A DNA stretch of 64,000 bases from a virus (IMGVR_UViG_3300021426_000004:64001-128000); one strand, 5' to 3'; shown: positions 6,001-64,000, counted from the stretch's first letter. Numbers and translations are program-made. The notes: generated by a model from the letters alone, not told the origin.

Positions 6001-9000
6001 TGTTATACTTCCTGTATTAAATTTTCCGCTTTTAGAACTTCCTTTTCTGTTAACAATTTGATCTGCAACACTTTCCCTAATATCTCCAAACATGTTTTCA
6101 CGGAGAAATTTAGCTGCATCAAGCACGTCTCCGATAGATGTATTTTCTTTTGCAAGTTGTTGAATTCTATTAATCGACCTAGATACATTATCATCACTTA
6201 AACTTAAATCAGCATCAGAAAAAATCATTTTTCGAATTCGATTCTGGTATGGTTCTATAATGCCAACTTCACCAATGTTTACTCCATTTTTTTGAAGTTG
6301 ACTATCATAAATAGCCTGCTGTACTCTCCATTTTTTCCAATCGTCGTCTGATGGTTTCCAATAATTCTTAATATCTGCCATCACTTCGCGTTGGTCATCT
6401 TTTCTGCTTCTGAATCTTAAGTCGTATGAACCAGTCATACCTACGTCTTCATCTGTTGTTAATTTTTTCCCTTTACCTGTTATTATCATATTTCCAGCAG
6501 CAGTTTTTGGACCTTTTCCTACGTCGCTTGATTCTATGCCAACGACTTGCCAATCGCTTTCTGGATAAATGCTTAATAATCCTTCTCCACCTAAAAATTG
6601 ACGAAGAGCGTAATATCTGTCGTTTAAGTTTGTTCCACTTGTTTTTAACGTTTGGCGTTCAGCATCTGTTAATCCTCTGCTTCCTGCAGGAAGTTTAAAT
6701 CCTTTTCCTTGCTTTTTTAAACCAAGATACTCGTCAAAAACATCAAGAGCTTCTTTTTGTGCTGCTTTCAGCTGATCTTCTGACAATGGTGCTGAAGCAT
6801 TCATTCGCAGTTGCATAAAGTGCTCAATTGCTGTATGTGCAGCTTGCCCAATTTCTGTACTAGCAAGCGTTGAATTATTTTCACGTCCAGTAATTAAGTC
6901 TTCCATAAAGTTTGCTGGATTATATGCAAATTTCGACAATGAGCTAAAAGAAAGTCTTGGCATATTGTCAATCATTCTTTTTTTCTCATCTACAGTCAAC
7001 AAATTAAATGACTCCAAAAGTCTAGCAAGTTTAGTATTCTGAGTGGGTTCACTCATTTCTTCAAACGCTTTAGGAGTTGTTTTTGCAGATAATAACTTTG
7101 TAAAGTCTAAACCTCCGACAACGTTTGGCAACTTCATTGCTTCTAATGTTGTGAAAATCGAATCATTTACGCCTTCATCGTGCATATGCGATGCAGACAT
7201 TGCCATACCAGACAATGCGTTTTGAATAACCTTGCCGCCTAATCTATTAACTACTCTTTCGGCTATTGCTCTGTTTGATCCTTTTTCGTTAAATGCTTTA
7301 CCTTGTCTGTCTCTTTCGTTTTTCACTAACGCTGCTTGTTCATCGATTGCAGCAGAGCGCAATTCTCCTAATTTAGCAATTGTTTCTTCGTCTATGGCAA
7401 GATAATCTGCATTTAAATATCCCATCCAAGTATCACGTAACGCAGATTGCATACGACCTAAAGCAGTTGATTCATCCTTTTTCCCTAACACAGAATCAAA
7501 AATATAATTCCAGTCATAATTTTTATTAATATCTACGCCTCTTTGTTTAGCAAAATACCGAGAAAGCATCATAGAACGTACATTGCTAGACATTGTATTA
7601 AACGGAAGATTGGTTGACCAGAATTTAGCGCCAAGCAAACCATCGCTGCCTTTAGCGCTTTCGATTAAATTTGGAATGGATACGTTTCCATATTTATCTC
7701 TGTTTTTATCGACAATATGGAAAAACTCCGTAAATGCTCTGTATTTTGATAACACTTCTAATTGTTCCGGAGTTGTATCCATTTCTATACCAGTCTTATT
7801 TCTAATAGAATTAACACTGTATTGTGATTCTGCAGCAGACATAGCTTTTAAAACAGTTGAATCCCAAGGAACTTGCATTGCGTTACGAATAGTTGCGTCA
7901 GGACCACCCATAAAATACCCATTCTGCATTGCTGGAACGAGTACTTTCATAACATCTATACCTTTATTTAAATCAATATCATCTGCACCAAAGACGTTAT
8001 GTTTAAATTCTTCTTTTATTTTATCTGCTTCAGCTTGAGAAAGGCCTCTTTCGTCTATTTTCTTTATACCTAAATCATAAGCTTTTTTCAAAATCTCTGC
8101 CGCTGCAACTTTTTCGCCTTTTTTATTTTTACCTGTATATGCAAGACCAATCAAATCCATGACGTCTCCATCGAAATCAGCGTCTTGCAGAAGCTGCATA
8201 ACTGGAGATGAAGGTGAAATATAAAAAGCATCCGGATCAAAACCAGAATCTGAAAGATACTTTTGAATTGCTTTTTCACGTTGAGAGTTTCCGACAGATA
8301 TATTTTTAACTTCTCTTGCAGAACGTGTCGTTGCAGGATACCGACTAATTCCTACAACTGAAGCCATGAGCTTCTGAAAAGCAATTTCGTCATCATCCAT
8401 AGTCAGCAAACCAAGTGTTTTTCTTTGGTCTTCAGACATTTGAGAGTACAGTGTATCGTAATATGATTTTGTTTCTCCGTCTTTAATTATGCCTGTGCCG
8501 CTTTCGTTTATGTTTTTTAATCCAGATATAATTGCATTAAAGAAATATGGTTGAGCCATTGCCCTGGAAGTTTCTAAGGATCTAGGTAAAATTGTATCTC
8601 CTTGCGAAATTCTCGTAAGCATTCCAAGACGGAATCCTTGTATTTCGTCCTGAATGCGCTTATCTCCCATGACAGCACCGTTTGTTGCTAATATTAAATC
8701 TCTCATTTCTGAGTTACCAGCAAAGACGGTATCAAGAGCTCCCTGCATTGTTCCAACACGGGCATACTCGTCTAAAAATGCTCGTGTTGTCATTTCGACA
8801 AATTCCGGAGAATTACCAAGAATCTGCGATGCTTGTCTGGACATCCAGTGGATTCCGCCTTGAGCATCTTTCATTGTTTTGTTTGCAAAAATTTTTCCAC
8901 CTGAACGTTCAATTTCTTCTGCAATATTCTTTTTAATTTCTTCTGTAGGAAGTAGTTTTCCATTATCATCTTTATATTTGATTCCGGCGTTTTTTACATC

Positions 9001-11028
9001 GGACATACTAAGTAAAAGATCCAAATCGTCTGTTATTTCTTCTACTCTTCCGTCAGGACCGATTGTTTTTACGGAGCCACCAAAGGGAGCCAGAAAACTT
9101 GATAAATTCAATGGGCTTAAGGCTGTTTTAACACCTGGCATGCGTGCTTGAAATCCTCTTGGAACATACTTGCTGTTTATGTAGCTTGTTCCGTTCATAC
9201 CAGACCCGCCAATTTCTGAAGGTGTTTGTCCAAATTTTGCGGCATCTTCAAGATCAAACAGTCCAATTTTTAAGTTCTTTGGCAGTTTGGTGCCAAATAA
9301 ATCTTGAATGCTTTCGCCAGATGTTGCAGGTTTACTCGCGTATTCTAGCGTTTTTGCTGCTTTATTAAATGCTTCGTCTCCGACGAAGTGCAAATTTTTT
9401 AGTCCGCCCCAAAAAACACTTTTATCTCTTTCTCCTGTTTCTTGATTTATAACAGGCGCAATGGCATTATATAAAGGATCAGCAACAAACTCCAAACCTA
9501 ATCCTTTATGTGCTCGCGAAAACGTATAATGTGTTTGTTTTCCGTGAGGAGACTTTGTAAGTCCTTCGTCAATGTATTTCGCATATTGTTGCATTAAATC
9601 GTTTCTTGTTTTTTCATCAAGACCTGGATCTGCAAGTCGCGGATCAACTTGAAGATAAACAATATCATCAATTGCATCGTTATTATTCGGCATCTTACCA
9701 GTTTTACGATGTCTAAATATGTTTTCCAGATGCAAACTATGGTCAATAGACATATAACGATCATCTCTGTCTGATTGACCGTAAAACTTTGTTCTATCTC
9801 TATTTAAATCAACACCGGCTTGTAAATCAGATAAAGTATAATTTGCAACTTCGTATCGTTTAATGTTTGGAGAAAACGGTATTTTTGCCTCTGTGTCACT
9901 AAATTGATTTAATGGAATATTTGATACTTTTGCTCCACGATTAGGCGTGAGCCAACTGAAATTATCGGATAGAATGCGTGCTGCATTCATATTACCTAAA
10001 AAAGGTTTATTGTTTTTTCTAGCGATTCTATCCCAAAATTGTTTATCATTAACATCTGTAATGCCATACATCGGCATACCTTTTGCAGAAGAAATGATCG
10101 CATCATATAACTCGCTGGAAAGGTTGTTGATTAACCCCCGGGTTAGTCCATTCCTCATTCCAATCGTTCCGTTTAATCGAACAGCTACTCCCGATTTTTC
10201 AGCAGCTGACAAAAAGTAAGGATTGGTTTTAAGTAAATTTTCAACTATAGCCTTTTCTTTGTTTGTTAAAGCTTCGTTGCTGTTTGGCTCGGATATAGCG
10301 CCTTTTGCCGCGTGAAAATTTTGAAATTGAGATGGAAGCATATTTGCAAAGCTATCAAAAAGATGTGCTTGTTTTTCAGATCCTCTTGATATTTGCGACA
10401 TAAAACCTTTACGTTGTGTTTGGTCTGTTCCTTGGAACATTAATATTTCTGACAAAGCATCTGCTGCTTTTGAAGTTCTTGACATTCCAAGTTGTTCAAA
10501 AATACCATTATCAAAAAGTTTATTTTTTATTCCTGCTTTAAAAGAAGCTGTATCCATCAGTGTTGTAGCAGATCTTTGAAAATCAGCAACTTGTGTTACC
10601 AATGCACGCATATTTGGCATTAAATTGGTTGCAGTTTTCAATAAACTCTGGCCTGCTTTTTTCCCGCCAACAGAAGACATTAAAGTAGATGAAGCAGTAA
10701 CAAATGAACGCATTTCATTTATTGTTGCTTCAATTCCTCTGCGAAGCATTTCTCTTTCAGCGTACAAGTCACTTAATTGCTTTTCTGAAAAAATAGGTGA
10801 ACTATCTATCTCTTGGTTTATCTTATTAATTCTGGAAAAAGAATTAACAATTGAGTCCTTCCCTTGAGAAAAAAACTCATCAGAACCGGAAATCATTTCT
10901 CCAGCCGAATTTTGTATTTGTTTAATATTATCAAGTACGCCCTTTGAAGCATCTTTTATACTTGAAAACTCTTTAATTGCGCTTGAACCATCAACATCAA
11001 GAGCAATACGAATAGTTGTATCAACCAT
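1..11028 (-). CDS. Giant tape-measure protein (3' end outside window, >3676 aa) with N-terminal two-barrel RNA polymerase domain and PD-(D/E)xK nuclease domain
   Basis: ATG at 11028 with AGAGGTG RBS. Absent from the ORF track, consistent with no stop before the window edge; frame checked by hand at several points. TP901-type TMP core near 3300-4190 (EFDASMNEIQAIT...MDALVALGDSAATTAAEIGKGMQKAAASAKVAGVSYAELTALL). RNAP motifs PRGFQARMPGVK (about 9127-9162), SRYP (about 8335-8346) and DADFDGD (8164-8184). Nuclease motifs LSFSSLSKF, GQAAHTAIE, GSYD...DIK, QQAIY (about 6300-6960). Confidence 0.9.
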   Translation of the reverse strand, partial: MVDTTIRIALDVDGSSAIKEFSSIKDASKGVLDNIKQIQNSAGEMISGSDEFFSQGKDSIVNSFSRINKINQEIDSSPIFSEKQLSDLYAEREMLRRGIEATINEMRSFVTASSTLMSSVGGKKAGQSLLKTATNLMPNMRALVTQVADFQRSATTLMDTASFKAGIKNKLFDNGIFEQLGMSRTSKAADALSEILMFQGTDQTQRKGFMSQISRGSEKQAHLFDSFANMLPSQFQNFHAAKGAISEPNSNEALTNKEKAIVENLLKTNPYFLSAAEKSGVAVRLNGTIGMRNGLTRGLINNLSSELYDAIISSAKGMPMYGITDVNDKQFWDRIARKNNKPFLGNMNAARILSDNFSWLTPNRGAKVSNIPLNQFSDTEAKIPFSPNIKRYEVANYTLSDLQAGVDLNRDRTKFYGQSDRDDRYMSIDHSLHLENIFRHRKTGKMPNNNDAIDDIVYLQVDPRLADPGLDEKTRNDLMQQYAKYIDEGLTKSPHGKQTHYTFSRAHKGLGLEFVADPLYNAIAPVINQETGERDKSVFWGGLKNLHFVGDEAFNKAAKTLEYASKPATSGESIQDLFGTKLPKNLKIGLFDLEDAAKFGQTPSEIGGSGMNGTSYINSKYVPRGFQARMPGVKTALSPLNLSSFLAPFGGSVKTIGPDGRVEEITDDLDLLLSMSDVKNAGIKYKDDNGKLLPTEEIKKNIAEEIERSGGKIFANKTMKDAQGGIHWMSRQASQILGNSPEFVEMTTRAFLDEYARVGTMQGALDTVFAGNSEMRDLILATNGAVMGDKRIQDEIQGFRLGMLTRISQGDTILPRSLETSRAMAQPYFFNAIISGLKNINESGTGIIKDGETKSYYDTLYSQMSEDQRKTLGLLTMDDDEIAFQKLMASVVGISRYPATTRSAREVKNISVGNSQREKAIQKYLSDSGFDPDAFYISPSSPVMQLLQDADFDGDVMDLIGLAYTGKNKKGEKVAAAEILKKAYDLGIKKIDERGLSQAEADKIKEEFKHNVFGADDIDLNKGIDVMKVLVPAMQNGYFMGGPDATIRNAMQVPWDSTVLKAMSAAESQYSVNSIRNKTGIEMDTTPEQLEVLSKYRAFTEFFHIVDKNRDKYGNVSIPNLIESAKGSDGLLGAKFWSTNLPFNTMSSNVRSMMLSRYFAKQRGVDINKNYDWNYIFDSVLGKKDESTALGRMQSALRDTWMGYLNADYLAIDEETIAKLGELRSAAIDEQAALVKNERDRQGKAFNEKGSNRAIAERVVNRLGGKVIQNALSGMAMSASHMHDEGVNDSIFTTLEAMKLPNVVGGLDFTKLLSAKTTPKAFEEMSEPTQNTKLARLLESFNLLTVDEKKRMIDNMPRLSFSSLSKFAYNPANFMEDLITGRENNSTLASTEIGQAAHTAIEHFMQLRMNASAPLSEDQLKAAQKEALDVFDEYLGLKKQGKGFKLPAGSRGLTDAERQTLKTSGTNLNDRYYALRQFLGGEGLLSIYPESDWQVVGIESSDVGKGPKTAAGNMIITGKGKKLTTDEDVGMTGSYDLRFRSRKDDQREVMADIKNYWKPSDDDWKKWRVQQAIYDSQLQKNGVNIGEVGIIEPYQNRIRKMIFSDADLSLSDDNVSRSINRIQQLAKENTSIGDVLDAAKFLRENMFGDIRESVADQIVNRKGSSKSGKFNTGSITDALWLHDRYNEAIEADEEIQSFVNKRTRERDKRTPDDVIWRSKYNQANLLLEQSKQEEIAGNTAQAKDLQARYDAAMSNLDLGLSQAVVLDTENFGEDIFRSIAGNSGTKAGRALVESYDKVQERFNNIRRDKDYLSERIDERNQDIEDASGRINSLKSQERELKEEKDILDRIQGYTDAINSSGLTTKEKGIAKRERTKLLNRHPELASSDEFFTISSAIKEGNDKLAAERLETAREKTTSRLQATQDLRKKQEEEMDLKVSEVEAMTKNLDAATQQEKLNEPFVQQYIKQLQGSATELLGNTFNSLTAMVDKEAAKPMDLAKNRLSFIEQINNAKVDAKDLFERGLISGTELTSRLSQAEHLLSNESLNQFDQNQIDAAKLKLGITQASKDEIYNKGLQERINVLNAQKELNARKAAQQFKEDRLTNPHARLSDYKKQVEDEYNSEVEKVTEQYKKDFESQNDLRQLQQGYAVNQITRRGNMMRMNRFGTSRNIATRAYSIYNNALTQAENRNVEAQSKLRAYEKETAGLKEGDNGYAEAQTNLAKLREEAQRASQDLSQLQSPFGKASATAAVFGQTIERVAARLGRQLFQKALQETKRFIKEFDASMNEIQAITLKSDSDMASVRSNTINKAIGLRTSVSNVANTEAALYRQGLSDQEVSNRTESIIKFATVTKLNVTEATKIITTALQNDLVPSAEQAMDALVALGDSAATTAAEIGKGMQKAAASAKVAGVSYAELTALLTVGTSDTQLSGTQVGTALQTVFTRMRRISLSGWTADQNGEKTTASDAEAALKSVGIDLFSDKNGQKMRTAYEVLSDLAGVWEKLSDVQKSVVTNALAGTRQTNIFSTLMEGMSEDGGKRIKEYLDLASNSGGITQSKYEIAMQSLAASLDTLKSSWDAVVESFVNSGVVTGALDIVSGFLQFAAGSDAFEQAGGVIVGTLTAIGGAILALKLKMPILAGLSAIVGLVAGIGTTGVLKTIFGGGSVETDEERFARESAADLANVNNYYSKSMSSLNNRRDIISEAQKKYDEYLKATESGNTISEKDARAKLISAMNDLGNAFPTIAPEVKNATTNLSEFSSALTKASDAADAEAARIHKETDEMTKQHQEVYGQQEYNKKFDETVIGGFDYGHLDREAIKYLSEAGADTTYYDENGDLQSHEIIDNFSTSQNIFSESNNPTLDKATGFVNLFNKSDVAKKIIGSYYKNDETMLSLLGTDPKKVKDLQASDQRIIAAAYDSFWKNRFKLDFSNEETYDAQRRTFNNDYIKELIGQWNLSDLATDTVSESTIQNIFTDKFFKMITDENGDIKDKYFIGDLLNVSAISAEIDNLKKKGSNYLLEGYTPEEIAQYRTSVDNAVDASLIDLRKKRPINQQREDLIAAVSTATNMSELKKSYEENDRAQEFANVLANSPELLSAYVMATGENPSITWEQFQDIASKAKIGYSQPVDIVKTAMSAMEADNAWASEFKNDDVFEVVYKNMQNIFGDMTDEILKAYENGEVSEEIEKYINQSISKNSLKPDTGLTQYTKKEIADLADKAMSSDYKSLAEYAQANNWTKSQYDAVNSIYGAEIDRYKNMTEAQRTDIEGLNLKRDFDVKIAVAGIDDLESANKVLQGTTQLIENLKKGGQFEIKAKLQMESDNYNFEQQVAMLQNGTSEEQMNALMSLNPGWSKARIEANMTEARANADRAIQDQREQTAGRLTQLAKTMGVDYAQQEAAKMGYKTKTNPILVKDALEEINKYAIYQPYQYDETTGALYWTSKDTGQRYAATPEFQNWFDRMAFGEFEPIGTTQDIDRENLAYGLQRSKTPYEIEQAQRVILSGDTNRIDELRKGNNELYQQAFNGLTQNQKDYLAIQDEYNSIMNHYGGSTDYLPGDQEKINRYNAMQTAAYADFGYKTRDEIYNAASLYNPITNPQFYNDYAAVVGSDIAERTKDQNYTLTAPEESYATLRMQRYAQGYDGITQIDKIQGAYDMIQSIEDGTYQDKYGKASED

Positions 11029-13547: not shown

Positions 13548-15308
13548 TTACTTCTTGAAGTAAGCGGTGCTGTACGCACCCTCGTCGTTACGCTTGGCGT
13601 CCAGAGCCGTTAATTCGAACTGGAACGTTGCAGCACTCTTATACGATGTGTCCATACCAGGAATCGTAGTAATACGAGCACGGAACACTTTGACCACATA
13701 GTAGCCAACAATAGCGCTTTCGGTGCAGTCATCGCCAGAGCCGTAGACCGGCCAAATAGCAGAACACTCACCGATAGCGGATTCCTTATTGGTGACGACG
13801 GCTTCATACGCTTCCTGCGTATAAGCATACACCACATCCACAAAATCAATATCTTCATCAGCAGAGAAAGTAATTTCCTTGCCGTTGATCAGATAATGAC
13901 CAGTGGTAACAGTACCGCTCTGAGTCGTAATAGGCTCCATGCCATCAATAAAGATACTACCTTCGATAGGAACCTGCAGCAGTTCAATCTTATGATTTGC
14001 ATCGGGCGTATGACGCTCAGTTGTGTCGATCTGATAGTTGCTGTTCTTTTTATACTGCGTCTTATTCGCCATAGCAAACAGATCAGCGTCGAACTGTCCA
14101 CATGTAAAATTCATCGTGAACGTAGAGTTGCCAGGAATAACAGCAACAGGGAACAGGGACCAACCAGCATTCATTTGGTCTTTGCTTTTTGTTCAGTGTA
14201 GTTCGCTAAGCTACACCCGCTTTATTCAAGCTGCTTTATGTTTCCATAAAGATCAGATCATATCTTACGCATATTCTGCGTCTCTCCATTTCAGCCTGCT
14301 TAGGCTTACGTCTTTCGACTGATCGTTAGAGTTTACACACGTTTAAAATGATATTTTTTTGCTCGAATATTGTTTTTTATTGATTGATACACAGATCCTC
14401 TGGGAAGATTCATTTCTTTTTCTGCGGCTAGCTGAGAATCATAAATACATCCAGTTTCTATACATTGAACTTTGGTTGATTTATGATTGTTTGCGCCCAT
14501 CATACTTGGACGTTTATTGTGCCGACATGCATCTAAAGCAGCTAAGGAGTTCGGATTTTTTCCAGCTCGTATATTTCCTTGACGTATTTTTTCTTTTGTT
14601 TTATCTGACAAATGTTTTCCTTTACGAGAAGCAACGCTTGCCTCGATAGCTTTTTCAGGACGTTTATTCCAAAAAGGATTGAGATTTCCTTTTAAGCCCC
14701 TATTGTTATATCCGCCTTCGGCAAAATTATACCCATAGTCTCTGTTTGTTGTTTGAAGCTTTTTAATTAACATTTTTTCTGTATTAGAAGCTTCGTCTTT
14801 AGTTAAATTCGATGCAAAAATTTCATGATCAAAATTATCCCAACCATATTTTTCAATCGCACTATTGAAATGCCAATTATAATTATATCCTTTTCCATTT
14901 TTCCATCTATTGTTAGGATTTGTTTTTTTAGACATTCCAACATATATTTTTCCATTAATCTTGTTTATATGTATATAAACATAATATGGTCCATTTTCTA
15001 TAATCATTTATTACATCCTTTCGTGTGTTTTACTACGGTAGGTTGTCTTTCTCTCCTTTACGGTTATTTCCGAATGTCTTCAAATGTTTGATTAAATAAT
15101 ATTTTAAAAAAGGAGAGGGAAGAGTTTCCCCGTTTAGAAGAGTTTAACGACACCAACGCTGGAATTTAATGTCGATTGTTTCAATGTTTGCGCTAACAGT
15201 AGCGGCCGTCAGCTCAGTAAAGGCATAAGCATGCCCATCGCACCGACGGAACACTACCTTCGGCACGTCAGCCACATAGCCCTTAAGCGCAGCATTATAG
15301 GTTGCCAT
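13548..15308 (-). CDS. Major tail (tube) protein, split by a group I intron: exon 1 15308-15168, exon 2 14171-13548, about 254 aa
   Basis: Removing the intron joins ...ETIDI to NAGWSLFPVAV... in frame. Lies between neck genes and tail chaperones and shows codon bias typical of highly expressed genes. Confidence 0.8.
14333..15007 (-). CDS. GIY-YIG homing endonuclease (intron-encoded, NUMOD-type C-terminus)
   Basis: YVYIHINKINGKIYVGMS...RW motif, EKMLI catalytic Glu region, GYN, and NUMOD3-like GKHLSDKTKEKIR. Confidence 0.9.
   Translation of the reverse strand: MIIENGPYYVYIHINKINGKIYVGMSKKTNPNNRWKNGKGYNYNWHFNSAIEKYGWDNFDHEIFASNLTKDEASNTEKMLIKKLQTTNRDYGYNFAEGGYNNRGLKGNLNPFWNKRPEKAIEASVASRKGKHLSDKTKEKIRQGNIRAGKNPNSLAALDACRHNKRPSMMGANNHKSTKVQCIETGCIYDSQLAAEKEMNLPRGSVYQSIKNNIRAKKYHFKRV
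15051..15078 (-). promoter_or_regulatory. Repeated motif, class III (GACATTCG-N7-CCGTAAAGGAGA), upstream of the intron endonuclease
   Basis: Minus strand GACATTCGGAAATAACCGTAAAGGAGAG; four related copies elsewhere in the window. Confidence 0.6.
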
Positions 15309-26303: not shown

Positions 26304-26330
26304 TCTCCCTTACGGTCTTTTTCGAAAGAC
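26304..26330 (-). promoter_or_regulatory. Repeated motif, class III, at the head of the morphogenesis operon
   Basis: Minus strand GTCTTTCGAAAAAGACCGTAAGGGAGA matches the other four copies. Confidence 0.6.
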
Positions 26331-26528
26331 ACGTTAAAAAGTGATAATAAATGCTGTTTATTTTTTTATAGTGTTTTGAAATGTTTACAAAATATTTTAT
26401 TAATGTCGAAGAAGATTTGATTTTAAGCATGCTTTTTTATTTCAGCGTAAAAAAAGGGGACAAGATTTATTTTTAATATACATGTCCCCTTTAAATGTTC
26501 TATTCAGAAAATTGATTTAAGGAATGGG

Positions 26529-26990: not shown

Positions 26991-27332
26991 ATGTATAACA
27001 GAGAAACTGAAAAAATGTTGGAAAAAGAAGGTGTAAACACATTTGCATACGTAAGTGCATTCAAGCCCTACGTTGAATCACTAAAAATGCGGAGAGAAGC
27101 ACTCCGCAGCGGTGATGAGAGTATGTTCCGCTACGTGTTTTCTATTCCCTTTGACAGGGAAAAGCACGAAGCGCATAACATGGCGGTAAAAACAGTAACC
27201 GAACTCAACGCCAAGTGCGTTGAGCTGGGATACCAGCCAATCTTTTCTGGTGATTTACACAACCGTCAGGAGATTGGCAAATTTGCATGTGAATTTAGCG
27301 GGGAAGGCGAACTCGCTAAATTCGCAGATTAA
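26991..27332 (+). CDS. Early hypothetical protein
   Basis: 113 aa, AGGAGG RBS, terminator at 27333-27360. Confidence 0.7.
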   Translation: MYNRETEKMLEKEGVNTFAYVSAFKPYVESLKMRREALRSGDESMFRYVFSIPFDREKHEAHNMAVKTVTELNAKCVELGYQPIFSGDLHNRQEIGKFACEFSGEGELAKFAD

Positions 27333-27453
27333 GAGAGGCTCGAAAGAGCCTCTTTTTTTTTATTTTTAATGGAGTCTAACAATAGATCCACCGGGCAACA
27401 GCGGTACTGAAGCTCCAGAAGTAGTCGAACTGGAGTAGATAGAGGAGGAAACC

Positions 27454-27942: not shown

Positions 27943-28418
27943 GATGACGAGCAACAACAAAGATCCTCCGGCTTATCTTGGCGGGCTACACCAGAGGCGC
28001 TTAACAGTACAGGTCTGCTAGATCAATAAACAGATCTGATGAAGCTGTTAAGTTGGGTGCAAGTGCCAAACGGGCTCAGAGGAGCTCAGGCGAAACCCTG
28101 TGGCATTCTTCGGAATGGGACGTCTTTACAGGGGGTGCAGAAGCGGCTGTTACCTGACTAAAGGCTGTTAACCGCTACCGGCAACTCCGCCTGGAGAAGC
28201 CAATGGGCCAACATGGAAATGTGCTTATGACGTACATGGGGGTGTTGGTGTGCAAACCAGGACATTGAAAAAAGCACGGAAAGGAGACGTGATGTAAATT
28301 GCGTGTTTTTATAGAGCAGATATAATGTCTGCTCTTTTTTTTTATTTTACGGCAGTTCAAAGAGGCTGCACCGAGGTCCCAACTCGGTAACAGTTAACAC
28401 CACAAGCATCGGAAGGAG

Positions 28419-29245: not shown

Positions 29246-29331
29246 CAATTAGCCTGAGCCTAACAAGCTCAGGCTTTTTTATTTTTAATGGCGGTTCAAA
29301 CCGTCAAATATAGCTCTAAAGAGCAGGAGGG

Positions 29332-29583: not shown

Positions 29584-29714
29584 ACAAAACGTTAAACTTC
29601 CCAAATGGCAAATTATACTTCTTCAAGAGAGAACGCAAGTAACATTGCGTTCTCTTTTTTTATCTTTTACGGCAACTCAGCCGCCAATAAAGTGTTGAGA
29701 GAAAGAGGTGTCCT

Positions 29715-31697: not shown

Positions 31698-31817
31698 CAA
31701 ATGATTGGCTGGGTTAACAACCCAGCCTTTTTTTATTTTCATGCAAATGGATCGTCTGCCGCACGTCAAAGACGGAGCTTTGGCATTAAAACGATTCAAA
31801 AAGAAAGGAAGATCACA

Positions 31818-32603: not shown

Positions 32604-32895
32604 TACATATAAATACGACTGCAACCCAAATTTAATACAACGATAAAGACCGGACTAATCCGGTCTTTTTTTATTTTTATGCGCTTAGCGAGTCTGGAGC
32701 TAAGTAGCGTTGGTTTCTTCCAGACCGCATCGTCGTCCCTCTGACGATGTGACTTCAGCCGCGAATTCCAGCGGAACAGAGGAGTCCTGATTTGGCAGGC
32801 GGGTGACTCCCGAATTAACAGTCTCTCGTCATGTCCCGACGAGATCAAATTAAGGCATCTGTGAGCCGTGATCACAGAAAAGGAAAGGAGACAAT

Positions 32896-36422: not shown

Positions 36423-36528
36423 AATTAAGAGTCAGCTTTCGAGCTGGCTCTTTTTATTTTTTATGAACGGGGAGCCAGACGAGAAACTCGGACTGTGCGA
36501 CGATCCGCAAAAGAAAGGAAGGTTACCA

Positions 36529-36852: not shown

Positions 36853-37362
36853 ATGAAAATGAAAATTGCATTTACTGGACATCGTCCGAAAGATCTTTAT
36901 GGATATTCCAGCCGTGAGCCATACATGAAGGTTATCAAGATGATTATGGATAATCTTAAGACTCTTGATGACGAGCTTGTTGTCATTACCGGTGGAGCAC
37001 AAGGCGTTGATCAGCTCGCTTTCTGGTCCGCCGAACGAATGAAACGTGAAGGCTTCAATGTAAAGACTATCGTTTCGGTACCTTTTAAAGGACAGGAGCT
37101 CCGCTGGAAAGAAACTGGAATGTTTAGTCAAGCTGAATACAAACATATGCTGAAATTAGCAGATGAAGTTGTATATTTATCTGATAACAGCAACGATGCC
37201 ATTCATAAGTTGGATGAAAGGAACCATTGGATGGTTGATCATTCTGACTTGCTTGTTTGTGTGACTCCGTATGATAACATTGAAACCAGACACGGAGGAA
37301 CTGGAAATTGTGTTAGATATGCAATATTGAAGAAACATAAATATACAGTCTGGAAAATTTAA
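36853..37362 (+). CDS. YspA/DUF1273-like SLOG family protein
   Basis: IAFTGHRP, ITGGAQGVD, RNHWMVDHSD and GGTGNCVRYA motifs. Confidence 0.85.
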   Translation: MKMKIAFTGHRPKDLYGYSSREPYMKVIKMIMDNLKTLDDELVVITGGAQGVDQLAFWSAERMKREGFNVKTIVSVPFKGQELRWKETGMFSQAEYKHMLKLADEVVYLSDNSNDAIHKLDERNHWMVDHSDLLVCVTPYDNIETRHGGTGNCVRYAILKKHKYTVWKI

Positions 37363-37450
37363 GAGCCTTCGGGCTCTTTTTTTATTTTGCGAACGACGGT
37401 AGCCAGGGCGGAAACCGCAACTGTGCCGTGACCCGTCAAAAGAAAGGAGA

Positions 37451-37849: not shown

Positions 37850-38147
37850 CAAATAAGCGACCCATCATTGGGTCGCTTTTTTATTTTTTTGCGGCAACCT
37901 AAGCCGGGGAGTGACAACTCCCAAATTAGGAGACGTGGGCGCCCCCATTTTTTCGGCAGGGGGGATTTTTTTCGCTTCGCTTCGTTCGGCTTTCACTGCA
38001 TTGCTGCTTCGCCTTCGATGTTGCTAGGCTTTGGCTTGCAAGCAAGCCTTGATTCTCCTGAATTTCTATCTCCATGTTGCTTGGCTGATATTGCACGTTC
38101 CTTTGTTTGTTGATTCGTGTGCGAGTACGTGTATTGTGGCTGATGCA

Positions 38148-38561: not shown

Positions 38562-38633
38562 TCGGTTCCACAAAGCGAGGACAAGCCTCGCTTTATTCGC
38601 CTAAAAAACAAATTTTGAAAGGAGATCCCATCT

Positions 38634-40120: not shown

Positions 40121-40487
40121 TCCTTTTCCTTTCTTTCTTGATTTGTTTTGCCCCGACGCAAGCGTCGGGTGATTCGCCTGAAATAATTCTCTTTTAATAC
40201 TTGTCAGGTTTGAAGGTTTTCTTGGCTTAATTTACCAAAAGCCTTTTCCTTCAAACTTGATTTGTATACGGCGAGTACAAGCCTCGCCTTATTCGCTCGG
40301 GATTGGGGTTCCCATCTCCCCATTTCCTACACAGTGGCGTCCGATACCCACACTAAATACCGCCGTCGGATAGACTGTCTCAGTCGAAAAATGAGAAGCC
40401 GCATACGGGTTGAACAGTATGACTCCCACGTTTTAAACGTGACGACAGAAAACAACTACTACAGAAAAATATGGAGGTACAAACACT

Positions 40488-40972: not shown

Positions 40973-41020
40973 TTCGGTACCTAACTTTGGCGACATTCGA
41001 GAATGACCGTAAAGGAGAGG
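40973..41020 (+). promoter_or_regulatory. Repeated motif, class III (extended form)
   Basis: TTCGGTACCTAACTTTGGCGACATTCGAGAATGACCGTAAAGGAGAGG. Confidence 0.6.
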
Positions 41021-45670: not shown

Positions 45671-45781
45671 TAAGCCTTTGATTTTACAAAATACTCCAGA
45701 GGTCGCCGCAAGCGGCGACTGATTCGCTAGGCCTTTCTTTCCTTTCTTTCTTGGCCTTTCCCTACGAAATTGAGGTGAAAT

Positions 45782-48245: not shown

Positions 48246-48290
48246 GGTACCGAACTTTGGGGACATTCGAAAAATACCGTAAAGGAGGAG
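48246..48290 (+). promoter_or_regulatory. Repeated motif, class III (extended form)
   Basis: GGTACCGAACTTTGGGGACATTCGAAAAATACCGTAAAGGAGGAG; overlaps the RBS of the next gene. Confidence 0.6.
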
Positions 48291-52361: not shown

Positions 52362-52367
52362 AATATA

Positions 52368-54214: not shown

Positions 54215-54285
54215 CGAGGATGTGGTGTAACGGTAACACGCGTCGCTTGGGCCGACGAGTAGCAGTTCAACTCTGACATCTTCGA
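54215..54285 (+). tRNA. tRNA-Pro(TGG)
   Basis: CGAGGAT/ATCTTCG acceptor, CGTCG-CTTGGGC-CGACG; T-arm slightly irregular. Confidence 0.75.
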
Positions 54286-54396
54286 CTTTAACCGCCGATG
54301 AGTGTCGTACGTTTTGGCCAGCCTTGCGAAAGCAAGTGGGCGGTATATAAATTGAACTCCTTGTCTGTGTGTAGGTGCGACTGCACATAGCTGTAT

Positions 54397-54480
54397 GCGG
54401 ATATGGCGAAATAGGCAGCACGCTCGGGTCTTAAAAACCCGTGGGTTAATCCCGTGTGGGTTCAAGTCCCACTATCCGCA
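54397..54480 (+). tRNA. tRNA-Leu(TAA)
   Basis: GCGGATA/TATCCGC acceptor, CGGGT-CTTAAAA-ACCCG, long variable arm. Confidence 0.9.
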
Positions 54481-54575
54481 CTGCCTCTGTGCTTTTACCA
54501 GATAGCGCAGAGGACATCGTTTATAATATCCTTTCTTGCTCCCTGACGGCCGGGAGCATAATAGACCGTCATTTT

Positions 54576-56014: not shown

Positions 56015-56327
56015 ATAAGATAGTGAAAGGCCGCGGCAAGCCGCGGCTTATTCGCATAATATTCCTTTTCTTTCCTGCTTTCACGTTCCCAGTATTTTCA
56101 GGATAGAAAAAGGAATTTTATATATACGGGGTGTTGCGTAAAAACTTAATTCAAACCTCGCCAGTTTGAGCCTCATACAATTCAATAGTGAGAATTTAAT
56201 AATGCCTTGTGCCTTGTTAAAGACTCACCTCCTATTCATAAAGAGTTTGGATAGCAACTCTTGAAACTCTCGTGCTATCCGCTAACCATCTTATTTAAAA
56301 AATTTGATTAAGGAGCGTGATTAGAAG

Positions 56328-56936
56328 ATGGTAAAGGTTTATGTGACTACGACTGGTGGACGGAAGAGTGATCTGTTTGACGAAGGCACGACGCTGCGTG
56401 AAGTGTTTGATGCATTTGATATCGACTATTCCGTTGCGACAAACACTATCGACGGTACAAGGATTGATCCTGCCGGGATGGACAAGTCTCTTCGTGACTG
56501 GGGAGTGAAGGATGAGTGCCGTATGTCCTCTATTGTTAAGATCGACAATGCGGCTCATATCGACATTTCCGGTGGTTCTGCTGTCCTGGTATCTGATGTC
56601 TCCAGGGAAGATTGGGAACGTGTTGAGAAGTATGCGCCTGAAATGCTGAAGATGATTGACGATGAAGGTAACGCAGTCTTCAAGGTAAAGATTGGCTGCG
56701 GAGGAGGATCTGTTAATAAGTATGGTGTGTGCTTCGGTTCTCATACGAATGAAGGCGGCAAGGCGACCGTTACTGTGATTCTGGATTATGAAGTTGAAGA
56801 TAAGATTGCCGCTGTGAAGGATGTTATGGGTTCCGCTCTGCTGGATCTGAACGAGATCGAGAAGGAACTGCCGACTGTGCTGAAGGATATTGCTGACAAA
56901 GAAGCGGAGATTAACAAGCTTATTACGCTGAAGTAA
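56328..56936 (+). CDS. Ubiquitin-like (beta-grasp) domain fused to a C-terminal domain
   Basis: First ~75 aa fit a Ubl pattern (VKVYV...TTLREVF...DKSLRDWGV...SIVKIDNA); lies upstream of E2/JAB/E1-like genes. Confidence 0.65.
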   Translation: MVKVYVTTTGGRKSDLFDEGTTLREVFDAFDIDYSVATNTIDGTRIDPAGMDKSLRDWGVKDECRMSSIVKIDNAAHIDISGGSAVLVSDVSREDWERVEKYAPEMLKMIDDEGNAVFKVKIGCGGGSVNKYGVCFGSHTNEGGKATVTVILDYEVEDKIAAVKDVMGSALLDLNEIEKELPTVLKDIADKEAEINKLITLK

Positions 56937-57012
56937 TCTCCAAAACTAAAGACAACAAGGGGCTGGAACGATTATGATCCAGCCCCTTTTTTAACTAAGG
57001 AGATTAAAAAAT

Positions 57013-58455: not shown

Positions 58456-59221
58456 AATTACAGAAGAACTGGAAGAAAAGATTCTTTCAGACTTTATTCA
58501 GAAATTTCAGAAAGAATGGACTCAGTTTAAAGAGAATATGAACGAGACAAAGTTCAACTTCTCTGTTCAGATGTCACAGAAAGCGAAAGAGAAGATTACT
58601 GTTCGTTATTCTCAATCTGCATATCTTAAAATGCAGGCACTTGTAGAGAATTTCGACACAGAAGTCGGCTGGTATGGATTTGTTAAACGTTTGGATGAAA
58701 ACACATATTATGTTTATGATGTAAAAGTCTGTAAGCAATATGTTACAAGCGGAAAGGTTGATACAGAAGATGAAGATACGCTGAAGTTCTTTGATTCTTT
58801 GACGGATGAAGAAATTGAGGATATGCATTTTCAGGCGCATTCTCATGTAAATATGTCTACAATGCCGTCCGGAACCGATCTTCAGAATCAGTCCGATGTT
58901 GTCAGAAATATGGGCAACAAAGGATTCTATTTGTTCCAGATCTGGAATAAGCGAGGAGATATAAACAGTTTCCTGTATAACCTTGATGAAAACCTTTTCT
59001 ATGATAGGAATGATATTGTTACTGAAATTGAAGGACTTGATGAGTTTATCCTATCTGTAGATGATCTGGTTATAGAACAAAAGACATATCCGTATCAATA
59101 TTCTCCTTATCCTGTTCCCGTAAATCAAAAAGAGAAGACAACTAAAAAAAACGAAGAAAAAAGTCCGTATCTAAATGATTATTGGGATGGATGCAATTAT
59201 AACGAAAGGTGGGATTGGTAA
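58442..59221 (+). CDS. JAB/MPN+ metallopeptidase (deubiquitinase-like)
   Basis: TEVGW and HSHVNMSTMPSGTD (E...HxH-x7-SxxD). Confidence 0.88.
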   Translation: MKPIKITEELEEKILSDFIQKFQKEWTQFKENMNETKFNFSVQMSQKAKEKITVRYSQSAYLKMQALVENFDTEVGWYGFVKRLDENTYYVYDVKVCKQYVTSGKVDTEDEDTLKFFDSLTDEEIEDMHFQAHSHVNMSTMPSGTDLQNQSDVVRNMGNKGFYLFQIWNKRGDINSFLYNLDENLFYDRNDIVTEIEGLDEFILSVDDLVIEQKTYPYQYSPYPVPVNQKEKTTKKNEEKSPYLNDYWDGCNYNERWDW

Positions 59222-59893
59222 TTGAATCTTACAAAAAGTGCAGAGTTTTTCAATCCTGAAAGCGTTAAAGAAACAATTAACTTGATTGGATGTGGTTCTG
59301 TTGGATCTGCCGTTGCTGAGCTTCTTGCAAGGTTCGGACTGACTCGTGTCAATCTTTATGATTTTGACACGGTAGAAGAGCACAATCTTTCCAATCAGAT
59401 GTTCACAACGAAGAATCTTTATAAACCTAAGCTCGAAGGTGTTTATGACAGATGGACTGAAATCAACCCTGAAGCAGCTAAGAACATCAAGCTATTTGGG
59501 GATGGCTGGGACGGCCAGAAACTTTCTGGATATGTATTCCTTTGCGTAGATAATATCGAATTACGCAAACGAATCGTTGAAGAAAATAAGTATAACATCA
59601 ACATAAAGGCTATGTTTGATTTTAGGACGGCTCTTGTTTCAGCGCAGCATTATGCGGCAGACTGGAGCAAGGACGAAGACATTGCTGCATTTCTTGATAC
59701 GATGGACTTTACCCACGCTGAAGCAGAAAAGAATGTTCCAGTAAGTGCTTGTAAGGTATCTTTGTGCGTAATGCCAACCGTATGGAGTGTGGCAATGGCC
59801 GGAGTTGTGAACTTCGTTAATTTCGTAAAAGAAGGAAAACTGGAAAAGGCAATGATTCTTAAGCCTTTTGATTTCGAAACTTTAATTCTGTGA
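59222..59893 (+). CDS. ThiF/E1-like adenylating enzyme
   Basis: LIGCGSVGS, DFDTVEEHNLSNQ, CVDNIELR and candidate catalytic Cys in SAC. Confidence 0.9.
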   Translation: MNLTKSAEFFNPESVKETINLIGCGSVGSAVAELLARFGLTRVNLYDFDTVEEHNLSNQMFTTKNLYKPKLEGVYDRWTEINPEAAKNIKLFGDGWDGQKLSGYVFLCVDNIELRKRIVEENKYNINIKAMFDFRTALVSAQHYAADWSKDEDIAAFLDTMDFTHAEAEKNVPVSACKVSLCVMPTVWSVAMAGVVNFVNFVKEGKLEKAMILKPFDFETLIL

Positions 59894-59894
59894 T

Positions 59895-60156
59895 TCATAA
59901 AGACCAAAAATGTTCAATCATTAGCAGTTTATGTTATAAGCTGAATCATTTTGCTCGGAGAAGAAGAAGAAGAGCCAGACCGACGCCTCCGCCGGTCTGG
60001 CTCTTGGGAAATTCAGGAAATAACAGTCAGAAAGATGAAGATCAATAAATAGAAACGGGTAAGACGACTGGAAATGGCCAAATAGCAGGGAAATTCACTT
60101 AAACATGCTGCAAGATCCGGACTATTTCCAGGTAAGACTGTAGAGAGTTTATGAAG
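59895..60156 (+). ncRNA. Structured ncRNA upstream of the reverse transcriptase
   Basis: Terminal TTCATAAA/TTTATGAA pairing, GTT-loop hairpin CAGTTTAT/ATAAGCTG, perfect 13-bp hairpin AAGAGCCAGACCG/CGGTCTGGCTCTT, and CTGGAAATG/TATTTCCAG stem. Confidence 0.65.
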
Positions 60157-60174
60157 CAACAGAAAGGATAACAA

Positions 60175-61323
60175 ATGATTTATATTACTTCACATCAGCA
60201 TAGAAAACCAAGAACAATAACATGGGAAGATGTCATTGCTGATAAAATTGTTTTTAATGACATGGCTAATGATGTTTCAAACTACACAGGCACAATAACA
60301 AGAAAACTCTCGGAAATTGATTCAGCAATGTTAAAAAAGATTAACATAGACGGAATGATCCAATGGCTGGAATCGTATAATAATGAAAATGAGGAATTAT
60401 TCAAAGCAAGAAGACAAGATCTTTACTCTTCATTTATGATCCCAAAAGCAACTGGAGGGTTTAGACGCATTGATAATCCTTGCGACAAACTACAAAACGC
60501 TTTAAGGAAATTAAGTACATTTCTGACAGAAGACTGTGGACTTTTGTATCATACTGCAGCATTTGCGTATGTTAAAGGAAGAAGTATTGTAGATTGCTTG
60601 AGAAAACATCAGAGAAATAACTCGAACTGGTTTCTTAAAACGGATTTCAGCGGCTTCTTTCCGAATACTACTTTGGAATTTACTATGAAAATGCTGAAAA
60701 TGATATTTCCTTTATCTGAAATATGTAAAAGGAATGACGGTTATAAAGCGTTAAGAAAGGCTATAAGCTTAGGATTCCTGAACGGTGGATTACCCCAAGG
60801 AACGGTATTGTCGCCTACACTTACAAACATAATTTGTATTCCTATTGATTATCGTCTGTTTAATAGATTTTCTGATATGAAAATTGTGTACACAAGATAT
60901 GCAGATGATATGCATATTTCAGCAGAAAGCAAATTTCCAAAAGAGAAAGCAATTCAAATAATCAATGAAACGCTTGAAAAGTTTGGAGCTCCTTGGGAGC
61001 TGAAACCTGAAAAGACGCATTATGGTAACAGAAAGGGTAAGAACTGGTGCCTTGGATTACTGATCAATGCACAAAATAATATCAGCGTAGGAGATAAGAA
61101 GAAGAAATATTTCCAGGCAGCGCTTAATTCGTTTATTCTGGATACCAAGAATAATAAGCTGTGGAACATGGAAGATGTTGTACATCTGAATGGTTTGCTG
61201 TCTTATTACAAGATGGTTGAAAAAGAATACTTTATGAAGACTATTGAAAAATATAACAAAAAGTATTCAGTTGATGTACACGAAATGTTTAAAAGTTATA
61301 TGAACGGTAGTTTAGCAGCATAA
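60175..61323 (+). CDS. Reverse transcriptase, retron-like / unknown-group
   Basis: IPKATGGFRRI, KTDFSGFFP, GLPQGTVLSP, YTRYADD, KPEKT and CLGL motifs. Confidence 0.92.
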   Translation: MIYITSHQHRKPRTITWEDVIADKIVFNDMANDVSNYTGTITRKLSEIDSAMLKKINIDGMIQWLESYNNENEELFKARRQDLYSSFMIPKATGGFRRIDNPCDKLQNALRKLSTFLTEDCGLLYHTAAFAYVKGRSIVDCLRKHQRNNSNWFLKTDFSGFFPNTTLEFTMKMLKMIFPLSEICKRNDGYKALRKAISLGFLNGGLPQGTVLSPTLTNIICIPIDYRLFNRFSDMKIVYTRYADDMHISAESKFPKEKAIQIINETLEKFGAPWELKPEKTHYGNRKGKNWCLGLLINAQNNISVGDKKKKYFQAALNSFILDTKNNKLWNMEDVVHLNGLLSYYKMVEKEYFMKTIEKYNKKYSVDVHEMFKSYMNGSLAA

Positions 61324-61507: not shown

Positions 61508-61555
61508 TTCGGTACCGAACTATGGAGACATTCGAAAATTGACGTAAAGGAGAGA
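61508..61555 (+). promoter_or_regulatory. Repeated motif, class III (extended form)
   Basis: TTCGGTACCGAACTATGGAGACATTCGAAAATTGACGTAAAGGAGAG. Confidence 0.6.
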
Positions 61556-62306: not shown

Positions 62307-64000
62307 TTGTCTGTAAAAACATATCTGCTTGAGCAGATAAGGCTGGTGTCCCTATCCAGTTACGATCTTTTTACGGATGAAGAGTACGATCTGTATATGC
62401 AGATAGTTGAACTCAAAAATCATTTGGACGAATTGGATAATAACAACGCAACAAAACAAGAAAAGCAACCAATCATCGATGAAAAGGCAAAATTAAAGCA
62501 TAAGCTTGAAACAATTATACTTCAGCATAAAGATACTCCAAGAACGGTTCGGCTGAAATCAGTTATTTATCATCCCAAAGATGCTGATTATCCGTTTCCG
62601 GAAGGAATAACTTATCGTAATCTGAAAAGCGGTAAAAAAATTGCTGAGTTTTGTTGCGAGCTGTCCAGAGCAATGGGCTTAAAGAATCTTGATTCAACAT
62701 TGGATTTGATTGTTGTTAAATGGAAAAACACCGAAATACTTCGTCAGCTTGTAATGAACGGATTCTATATGCCACTTCTTACTGAAAACGGAATAGAAAA
62801 CCGGCATTACAGATTTTTCACAGCCAGCGCTGGGCAACTGAGAAGAGATAAAATCCAATGTATATCTGATCAAGCATGGGAAAAGGTACACAAAAGACTG
62901 GAATGTGGAATGAACTGGGATTTAATTAACGAAAGAGGATCGTTGAATCCTAATAAGTATCTTGCATACTTAAGTCTTGGGTCTTCCGCTACTGAAGAAT
63001 GGGCAGACTTTGATATTGACCGCTGTATTGTGATCAAGGAATTTGAAGGGCCTGTCACAGACAGAATGATGTATATCAAACCTGATTACACATATGAAAC
63101 AAGTGTTCGCACCGTAATGATTGATCATACAGATGGATGTGGAATGATGCTTCCTGAAGTTTCAAAATCAAATTTTATGGTGAGGAGCTGCTGGATTAAA
63201 GGTCTTCTTGGTAGCTTTGATTTTATGAAGTTTTGCAAAGTAAATAATGTAAGTCCTGTAATTGAAGATGCTTGGGGAAAAACACATGATCTTGTGAAAG
63301 AAAAAATCAATGTTATCCTGACAACATCTATGTTTAAGCTGTATAAGCTTTATAAATCATGGGATGAGTACAAGAAATTCTTCAAAGAAAATGATTGCAG
63401 GTTTTGCAGAACAAACTATGAAGAAGATTATATAAAAGATACAACAATTTCATATCAGATGATTCAAACTTGTGTGCTTTTCAGCGACGCTGAAATAAAA
63501 GAGTTCACCAAGAATGAACATAACAGAATAGAAAACCTTACTAAGGATAAGAAATCAATGCTGGAAATACTGAAGGCAAATCCAAACTCGGATCAGCCTT
63601 ATAAAGCAGCATTAGCGTTATATCCTGAGCTGTTAAGAGAAGCATACACAAGAGAATCTATGAAAAACATCCGTAAAAGAATGTTGCTGGATGCTAAGTC
63701 GGGCCGAATAAGATGTGAAAATAAACGATTATTTGTCTTGCCTGACTTCTATGCAGCCTGTGAATATTGGTTTATGGGTATTGAAAGACCAAAAGGACTG
63801 CTGGCTAAAGATGAGGTTGCTTGTAAGATATTCAGAAGACATGATAAAGCTGATGTTTTGAGGTCTCCTCATCTGTATCTTGAACATTCTATTCAGAAAA
63901 TATCCCATGATCAGAATGTTTATGATTGGTTCTACACAAATGCAATTCATACAAGTGTGCAAAGTATGATTTCCAGAATTTTACAATTCGATGTTGATGG
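62307..64000 (+). CDS. YonO-like single-subunit RNA polymerase (3' end outside window)
   Basis: TTG start after AAGGGGAG. Motifs FFTASAGQLR, HTDGCGMMLP, FMVRSCWIKGLL and LRSPHLY; the window ends in frame at ILQFDVDG. Confidence 0.88.
   Translation, partial: MSVKTYLLEQIRLVSLSSYDLFTDEEYDLYMQIVELKNHLDELDNNNATKQEKQPIIDEKAKLKHKLETIILQHKDTPRTVRLKSVIYHPKDADYPFPEGITYRNLKSGKKIAEFCCELSRAMGLKNLDSTLDLIVVKWKNTEILRQLVMNGFYMPLLTENGIENRHYRFFTASAGQLRRDKIQCISDQAWEKVHKRLECGMNWDLINERGSLNPNKYLAYLSLGSSATEEWADFDIDRCIVIKEFEGPVTDRMMYIKPDYTYETSVRTVMIDHTDGCGMMLPEVSKSNFMVRSCWIKGLLGSFDFMKFCKVNNVSPVIEDAWGKTHDLVKEKINVILTTSMFKLYKLYKSWDEYKKFFKENDCRFCRTNYEEDYIKDTTISYQMIQTCVLFSDAEIKEFTKNEHNRIENLTKDKKSMLEILKANPNSDQPYKAALALYPELLREAYTRESMKNIRKRMLLDAKSGRIRCENKRLFVLPDFYAACEYWFMGIERPKGLLAKDEVACKIFRRHDKADVLRSPHLYLEHSIQKISHDQNVYDWFYTNAIHTSVQSMISRILQFDVD

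Follow-up and report, generated by a model that had tools for sequence, protein, structure and literature searches.

Two single-chain RNA polymerases and a probable third within the tape-measure protein of a 148-kb virus genome

How does a phage transcribe its genes when polymerase-type active-site motifs occur in three of its own proteins? The question is raised by the virus record IMGVR_UViG_3300021426_000004, of which we analysed bases 64001-128000 (hereafter the window, 64,000 nucleotides (nt); positions count from its first base unless given as genome positions). The original prediction read three DxDGD motifs here as three distinct RNA polymerases (RNAPs) that may form a self-contained transcription cascade. 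We found that the phage encodes two clear single-chain RNAPs, an early protein of 906 amino acids (aa; hereafter, p906) and a homolog of the SPbeta enzyme YonO, and a probable third inside its giant tail tape-measure protein (TMP). The best explanation is that three two-barrel (double-psi beta-barrel) single-chain polymerases transcribe the phage in stages, a reading to which we assign a probability of roughly one half.

The three motifs lie exactly where they had been claimed, with DADFDGD at 8164-8184 (minus strand), GADYDGD at 34240-34260 (plus strand) and FDVD(GD) at the window end. Sites of the form D[FYV]DGD number three in the 200 open reading frames (ORFs) of the 148,117-bp genome. Shuffling gave 0.114 on average, and a count of three was reached in none of 2000 shuffles; taken alone, the looser DxD[GA]D was not significant (3 vs 1.69 expected). 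The record has 39% GC, belongs to the IMG/VR class of direct terminal repeats, and has a CheckV completeness estimate of 100%. A minus-strand block at genome 21.4-90.3 kb encodes the terminase, portal, head-tail adaptor, virion proteins and tape measure. At a divergent junction (window 26266-26626) the plus-strand arm starts, which crosses the record ends and comes back to 21 kb. A DNA search against an isolate-phage collection found none resembling the window.

The YonO-like protein is, by sequence, a full-length homolog of SPbeta YonO (tblastn, 32.5% identity over 91%, E 4e-111), as the original prediction had proposed. It passes the Pfam RdRP cut-off (27.1 bits, 49 summed, vs 23.8) and belongs to a family of more than 1800 members in public data. 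The ORF leaves the window inside its FDVDGD motif (aa 561-566), of which DVDGD (562-566) is invariant in 21 YonO-like sequences, and a beta-subunit-like barrel motif, FMVRSCWIKG, lies N-terminal to it. A two-barrel fold is thus expected for this protein by homology. YonO itself was shown by experiment to be a processive DNA-dependent RNAP that transcribes the SPbeta late operon; the promoter of YonO has yet to be defined (Forrest et al. 2017, PMC5467207). In this genome the YonO-like gene stands at the head of the replication module. Immediately upstream of it, at 56328-61323, there is an operon of 202-, 480-, 265- and 223-aa genes followed by a 382-aa gene. The counterparts of the last two (223-aa and 382-aa) in the syntenic relative L020 carry Pfam ThiF and RVT_1, and the genes at 56328-61323 are a ubiquitin-like activation set beside a reverse transcriptase.

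The second polymerase, p906, is encoded 6.3 kb from the divergent junction amid small ORFan genes. Nine of the ten early-zone proteins scanned had no Pfam family and the 600-aa one had a PcfJ-like match, which fits a host-takeover region. Sequence searches placed p906 only loosely. It scored 18.7-20.5 bits against Pfam RdRP, under the cut-off of 23.8; tblastn against the phage collection returned no match for it or for the TMP domain; and PDB sequence searches with all three proteins (YonO-like, p906 and TMP domain) returned none. The family is narrow, with 37 metagenomic homologs, all at least 56% identical, and a p906 profile searched against 1.8 billion representatives recovered its own cluster and fragments and nothing more distant. 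Its alignment with the YonO family had an hhalign probability of 71% (E 3.8e-5) over 382 columns that include the catalytic loop. Along the chain, YGIKG (aa 150-154, N-terminal to DxDGD) is invariant, RYPH stands at aa 399-402, and within GADYDGD (aa 449-455) the aspartates D451, D453 and D455 of DYDGD (451-455) are invariant in 36 p906 sequences.

The predicted structure of p906 was more informative. The AlphaFold2 model, made from the family alignment, reached a predicted local distance difference test score (pLDDT) of 88.5 and a predicted template modelling score of 0.83. Its top Foldseek matches were QDE-1 and RDR2 (E 1.8e-10, probability 1.0), and next came P74-26 gp62, P23-45 gp64 and crAss gp66. 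In VIA-align the Z scores were 17.7 for RDR2 (576 residues), 16.5 for QDE-1, 16.1 for P23-45 gp64 and 8.2 for crAss gp66, with aligned spans of 435-602 residues for the first three, against a baseline of about 7 for cellular RNAP large subunits and unrelated rows. The original prediction had named the lack of a two-barrel fold in this protein as grounds for giving up the three-polymerase reading; the fold is present in the model (pLDDT 88.5, Z 16-18), so this refutation fails. We conclude that p906 as modelled is a two-barrel polymerase, and that p906 and the YonO-like protein are polymerases, by fold or homology.

For the third candidate there is a precedent in the Thermus phage P23-45, whose gp96 is a 5002-aa TMP with an N-terminal RNAP that transcribes the pre-early genes, including that of a second RNAP, gp64 (Chaban et al. 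2024, PMC10770324). The TMP studied here has 5057 aa, matches several PHROG tape-measure families and has homologs of 5331-6925 aa. Its core carries NGTSY (aa 612), GFQARMPGVKT (625-635), DVK (677-679), RYPAT (896-900) and DADFDGD (949-955), a set that spans aa 612-955 and recurs with the same layout in relatives' ORFs of 5022-6925 aa. When 8, and later 10, giant TMPs were aligned (about 5000-6900 aa, with identity down to ~28%), G-FQ-R-G-K (625-634), K679, RYP (896-898) and Q-DFDGD were invariant, with DFDGD (951-955) kept in all 10. The motif series has the same order and similar spacing in the TMP, p906 and the YonO-like protein (20, 28 and 20 residues, respectively, from DG to GxK, and 55, 52 and 43 from RxP to DxDGD). 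All three thus place a beta-subunit-like motif with conserved basic residues (xQxRxxGxKG type) N-terminal to the DxDGD barrel, as GFQARMPGVKT, YGIKG and FMVRSCWIKG, respectively. A widened TMP-core profile aligned colinearly by hhalign with p906 (E 5.8e-4), with the early YonO paralogs of relatives (E 1.8e-3), and with YonO (E 0.017, 374 columns, from the first barrel through DxDGD). Two TMP queries to the ESM Atlas, whose matches are of lead grade only, led to PF05183-labelled clusters (19/30 matches with scores up to 0.91 for one, and a first named match at 0.81 for the other). Taken together, the motifs, the weak colinear profile alignments and this language-model lead make it likely that the TMP domain is a polymerase.

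Several results weigh against a third polymerase. An AlphaFold2 model of TMP aa 151-1350, from an 8-sequence alignment, had a pLDDT of 44 and was unusable, and Foldseek and VIA on it returned helical noise. The domain had no significant match to Pfam RdRP or PDB sequences, and the TMP N-terminus gave an hhalign probability of 0.1 against that of P23-45 gp96. A combined p906 and YonO hidden Markov model (HMM) put the real TMPs only slightly above reversed decoys, and one DxDGD per ~44,000 residues is not rare for the loose pattern. These observations would suit a phage with two polymerases only, p906 and the YonO-like enzyme, in which the DADFDGD region is another metal-binding or structural domain and the host polymerase or some other factor starts the programme. 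We consider such an arrangement unlikely, as ADFDGD and four more polymerase-type motifs stay invariant across TMPs at ~28-37% identity, their order and spacing match those of p906 and YonO, three independent hhalign alignments are colinear (P 6e-4 to 0.017), and both ESM Atlas queries reach PF05183. Moreover, true polymerases are equally invisible to the sequence tests: gp96 and gp64 scored lower still than the TMPs with the combined HMM, and gp96 went undetected against gp64 by hhalign (probability 15), so that sequence tests of kinship between the TMP and gp96 are not decisive.

Directly after the polymerase-type region, the TMP carries a PD-(D/E)XK (RecB/Cas4-like) nuclease domain, which matched PDDEXK_1 with 24.8 bits against a cut-off of 22 (E 2.5e-5) when that piece was searched alone.

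The combination is not confined to this genome. Four of 20 large IMG/VR records with a YonO-like gene (G005, G008, G012 and G013) encode a homolog of the TMP domain in ORFs of 5022-5924 aa (5022-5665 aa in G005, G008 and G013), and no p906 homolog was detected in these 20 records. A DNA search with the pattern D[FY]DGD, for which the reversed-pattern control gave nothing, revealed a second site besides the TMP in G005, G008 and G013, at a distance from the TMP that matches p906 here. The second sites fall at about aa 460-500 of ORFs of 806-842 aa in the syntenic early position (loci L112-L114). The early DYDGD proteins aligned with YonO over 690 columns (hhalign probability 100, E 7.6e-46) and scored 22.9-35 bits with Pfam RdRP, and all three genomes have a separate YonO-like gene besides. 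The early enzyme of G005, G008 and G013 is therefore, by sequence, a plain YonO paralog, and as these three related genomes carry the trio, the TMP domain, an early polymerase and a YonO-like polymerase are a conserved set of the clade. The alignment of p906 with the early YonO paralogs was colinear and not significant (E 0.26); p906, present in this genome and its closest kin, is far more divergent than they are, and the early polymerase of the clade has either diverged fast or been replaced. Contigs of equal length in the match lists indirectly link the TMP with YonO (114,767; 99,178) and p906 with YonO (50,345).

The conservation of the set also bears on whether the two non-virion enzymes are successive stages at all. 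They could instead be alternates or specialists, with one priming replication or making regulatory or antisense RNA, for example, and the other acting as the transcriptase. The YonO-like gene does head a module of single-stranded DNA-binding protein, primase-helicase and DNA polymerase III alpha genes in L020, and the RNA-dependent QDE-1 and RDR2 are among the closest folds to p906. We nevertheless think this very improbable, because YonO itself is a processive DNA-dependent transcriptase for late genes, and because at least four genomes retain both an early-position polymerase and a YonO-like gene, which fits a division of transcription labour as in P23-45, N4 and phiKZ.

If the phage does transcribe its genes with several enzymes, distinct signals may be expected. 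The original prediction had reported three repeated intergenic signatures in mostly distinct zones. We found three classes that are not due to chance and occupy largely separate zones (Table 1); they may or may not be the three first noticed. Terminator-like sites at 24-44 kb are strongly enriched (50 vs 16.3 expected).

Signature 3, of ~28 nt, reads TTCGRRAA-N4-CGTAAAGGAG, with the full form (GGTACC..)GACATTCGAAAA-NN-ACCGTAAAGGAGAG. Five copies occur in the window, on both strands, against 0.00 expected, two more confident copies lie outside it, and a weaker one with 3 mismatches stands at 28261. The element always points the same way as the gene downstream of it, and five copies are placed 33-83 nt 5' of a start codon; its 3' end often pairs with downstream sequence as a hairpin. 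Copies head the structural block, follow the TMP gene and precede a homing-endonuclease gene. Signature-3-like elements are present in G005 at the same junction and the same post-TMP position, and L020, in which the copy upstream of YonO is conserved, has a YonO 76% identical to the one here. The purine-rich end of the signature resembles the GGGAGA with which transcription from T7 promoters begins. Nothing like signature 3 was seen in the yonN-yonK gap of SPbeta. Signature 3 stands at the head of the late block and, across relatives, is conserved in parallel with the YonO-like enzyme. On these grounds, and by analogy with SPbeta, it is probably the promoter of this enzyme, for which it is the most plausible candidate. 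The homing-endonuclease gene (14333-15007, minus strand; PHROG 314, E 3e-27) is inserted in the structural block and has its own signature 3.

Signature 1 consists of a GC-rich hairpin and TTTTTAT(C/T)TT (hereafter, the T5AT4 core), followed after 1-3 bases by A(C/T)G. Its nine copies lie at 27.3-37.9 kb, on the plus strand throughout, and each is just 3' of a gene; the related 11-mer TTTTTTATTTT has nine plus-strand occurrences and no minus-strand one. Twelve more copies flank p906 homologs in three contigs at ~60% protein identity. Their stems are mostly different and the T5AT4 core is exact, and one whole element is near-identical between genomes. A hairpin-free core (TTTTTATTT, at 26434) is found at the divergent junction, 190 nt 5' of the first plus-strand gene. 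Signature 1 travels with the p906 subclade and may be a promoter or terminator class of p906 or of the TMP enzyme of this subclade.

Signature 2 has a 7-bp GC stem, a CAAG loop and then TKATTCGC, without a T-run. Five copies were found at 38.6-56.1 kb against 0.00 expected, each 10-35 nt past a stop codon; L020 and G008 contain less exact look-alikes. It appears to bound the genes of the middle zone.

Further observations weigh against the staged reading. Signatures 1 and 2 sit 10-35 nt after stop codons, a placement that would also suit terminators or processing sites instead of promoters. Signature 1 is absent from G005 and G008, both of which have the TMP domain, and thus has no general link to TMP-fused polymerases. 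A ~127-bp assembly repeat closes the record, whose ends therefore do not tell which DNA enters first. Accepting three polymerases, one may still doubt that the programme is self-contained: the host RNAP could read the earliest genes, or some middle or late ones, with signatures 1 and 2 as ordinary or class-specific terminators. Signature 1 is indeed a textbook hairpin plus T-run, and host RNAP still reads the late genes of P23-45 and the early genes of SPbeta. We judge this account possible and rather doubtful. No sigma-like gene was found, with no Sigma70_r2 match in the genome under a control that was positive in 11/14 genomes. Sigma-70-like sites at 24-44 kb were not enriched (36 vs 38.6 expected) and none was well placed; the host may use another promoter consensus, and the lack of enrichment is accordingly weak evidence. 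Further, the T5AT4 core is invariant, with its fixed A and the following A(C/T)G, in 22 hairpin-linked copies from four genomes at ~60% protein identity, and the hairpin-free copy lies at a divergent junction where no gene needs termination. A search for T7-type RNAP families gave no match, but neither did its control, so that this negative is uninformative.

Under the staged reading, which we prefer, the TMP polymerase, as part of a tail protein, would reach the cell together with the DNA and would transcribe the first plus-strand genes after injection, p906 included. The middle and late genes would next pass to the non-virion enzymes, of which the YonO-like one, as YonO in SPbeta, would most likely drive the structural genes and probably reads signature 3. 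This order (virion, early, then YonO-like RNAP) and the pairing of enzymes with signatures are suggested by gene position and by the analogy with P23-45 and SPbeta; we likewise infer catalysis by the TMP domain and independence from the host RNAP. Thus, transcription of the phage genes may proceed in stages and largely do without the host enzyme.

Table 1 Positions of the polymerase genes, tape-measure domains and repeated signatures in the window.
Feature	Position	Strand	Remarks
Tail tape-measure protein, N-terminal 3676 of 5057 aa	1..11028	-	Gene continues before window start; Pfam, PHROG
PhageMin_Tail tape-measure core, aa 2314-2520	3469..4089	-	Pfam E 1e-29
PD-(D/E)XK nuclease domain of TMP, aa 1358-1581	6286..6957	-	Pfam PDDEXK_1
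Putative two-barrel RNAP core in TMP, aa ~590-1010	7999..9261	-	Motif conservation, hhalign, ESM Atlas
p906, non-virion two-barrel RNA polymerase (predicted fold), 906 aa	32896..35616	+	AlphaFold2, Foldseek, VIA, hhalign
YonO-like RNA polymerase (by homology), first 564 of 939 aa	62307..64000	+	Gene end 1126 bases past window; tblastn, Pfam RdRP
Signature 1	27331..27367	+	
Signature 1	28313..28348	+	
Signature 1	29251..29286	+	Near-identical copy in relative L008
Signature 1, TTTTTATCTTTT variant	29625..29668	+	
Signature 1	31707..31739	+	
Signature 1	32645..32678	+	228 nt upstream of p906 start
Signature 1	36427..36462	+	
Signature 1	37361..37388	+	
Signature 1	37855..37890	+	
Signature 2, GC stem, CAAG loop, TTATTCGC tail	38570..38600	+	
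Signature 2	40150..40177	+	
Signature 2	40269..40296	+	
Signature 2	45700..45727	+	
Signature 2	56028..56055	+	
Signature 3 (GACATTCGGAAA..ACCGTAAAGGAG)	15053..15082	-	71 nt upstream of homing-endonuclease gene, structural block
Signature 3 variant	26305..26334	-	Head of minus-strand structural (late) block; like element at same junction in G005
Signature 3	40992..41017	+	
Signature 3	48262..48287	+	33 nt upstream of 153-aa gene
Signature 3	61527..61552	+	780 nt upstream of YonO-like gene; conserved in L020

Other repeated and non-coding elements were seen along the genome. Just 5' of the first plus-strand gene at the divergent junction (26500-26600), TTGGAAGA occurs five times at a fairly but not strictly regular spacing of ~12-19 bases. 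An AT-rich, ORF-free stretch of 545 bp (42691-43235) holds several short direct-repeat families, e.g., ATAATAAATCTTATCCCT and TCTTTAGTAGNTATTTAT, and is a candidate replication origin. Between the 169-aa and 218-aa genes (52362-53097) lies a 736-bp non-coding array of ~7 units, each with a hairpin of the ATTGTGCCA..TGGCACAA type. Beyond the window, at genome 6.7-15.6 kb, a family of small paralogous genes has a DNA motif, CTGCTGAAAGAGCAGGAA, in frame (LLKEQE) in common, and their GGTGAAGTGG-ATG gene junction is conserved. Six tRNA genes (Asn, Ile-tat, two Ala, Pro and Leu-taa) are located at 21446-21518, 41651-41725, 51050-51122 and 54045-54481, one of them within the structural block, and Rfam at gathering thresholds reported these six and nothing else. 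A T-arm-like hairpin, (G)TGAGGTGCAAATCCTCA plus CCCGC, is present in six copies in ORF-free stretches (48926, 49655, 50445 and 50784 on the plus strand; genome 15097 and 16005). They were not called as tRNA by ARAGORN or Rfam and may be tRNA-like RNAs with a non-canonical T loop.

TMP-fused polymerases have so far been known only from one Thermus phage group, and YonO only as the lone late-gene enzyme of a temperate Bacillus phage. In full-text literature searches, only the P23-45 paper was found to report a TMP-fused RNAP; for three polymerases encoded by one phage, or for YonO paralogs beside a TMP fusion, no report was found. The clade joins a probable fusion of this kind with YonO and adds a second YonO-type paralog, and may thus provide the first phage to have three polymerases of its own. 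The co-divergence of promoter and terminator classes with paralogous minimal RNAPs can be followed here as a natural experiment, with one signature class seen only with p906, and signature 3 is a concrete candidate for a YonO-type promoter. If real, three compact and mutually orthogonal single-chain RNAPs with short cognate signals would make useful tools. More speculatively, a clade of 105-150-kb long-tailed phages might run its whole programme without host RNAP by three two-barrel enzymes. Its TMP fusion would then be independent of that of the Thermus phages, the T5AT4 and TKATTCGC hairpin elements would serve as terminator or promoter modules, each specific to a polymerase class, and in signature 3 a YonO-type promoter would be defined for the first time; we put this forward tentatively, as a possibility with the odds against it.

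Among known systems, P23-45 resembles this phage in several respects. In both, a giant TMP of ~5000 aa has a polymerase-type region with DFDGD within the N-terminal fifth of the chain (aa 779 in P23-45, aa 951 here), the early genes encode a further single-chain two-barrel RNAP (the p906 model aligns with the gp64 structure), and an AT-rich element recurs in the early region. They differ in that the TMP domains have no detectable sequence relation, and that the TMP here has an extra PD-(D/E)XK nuclease domain, in place of which gp96 is described as carrying a metallopeptidase domain. This phage has a third, YonO-type polymerase, whereas P23-45 uses the host RNAP for its late genes. The genome here, moreover, is metagenomic rather than from a thermophile isolate.

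SPbeta is similar in that the 939-aa protein is a full-length homolog of its YonO. A long structured non-coding stretch follows the signature-3 copy nearest the YonO-like gene here, and the SPbeta YonO promoter precedes an unannotated non-coding RNA. SPbeta, however, is temperate and has one YonO, without a polymerase-type TMP domain or a second paralog.

Relays of polymerases are known as well. In coliphage N4 a virion RNAP is followed by RNAPII and then by the host RNAP, and hairpin-containing DNA signals are involved. The proposed programme shares with it a three-stage relay begun by an injected enzyme that forms part of a virion protein of very large size. N4 uses T7-like right-hand polymerases and leaves the last stage to the host enzyme, whereas all three candidates here are two-barrel. 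The jumbo phages phiKZ and AR9 transcribe independently of the host RNAP by means of their own two-barrel enzymes, one of which is packaged in the virion; they use two split multisubunit enzymes rather than three single chains, and their virion enzyme is not known to be fused to a tail protein. Finally, gp66 of phi14:2, a crAss-like phage (PDB 6VR4; crAss gp66 above) is a single-chain two-barrel RNAP in a very large virion protein. It is a podovirus-like ejection protein rather than a tape measure, and no trio is known there. The clade described here is not a new category: it extends known kinds, namely P23-45, the YonO of SPbeta, and the relays of N4 and phiKZ.

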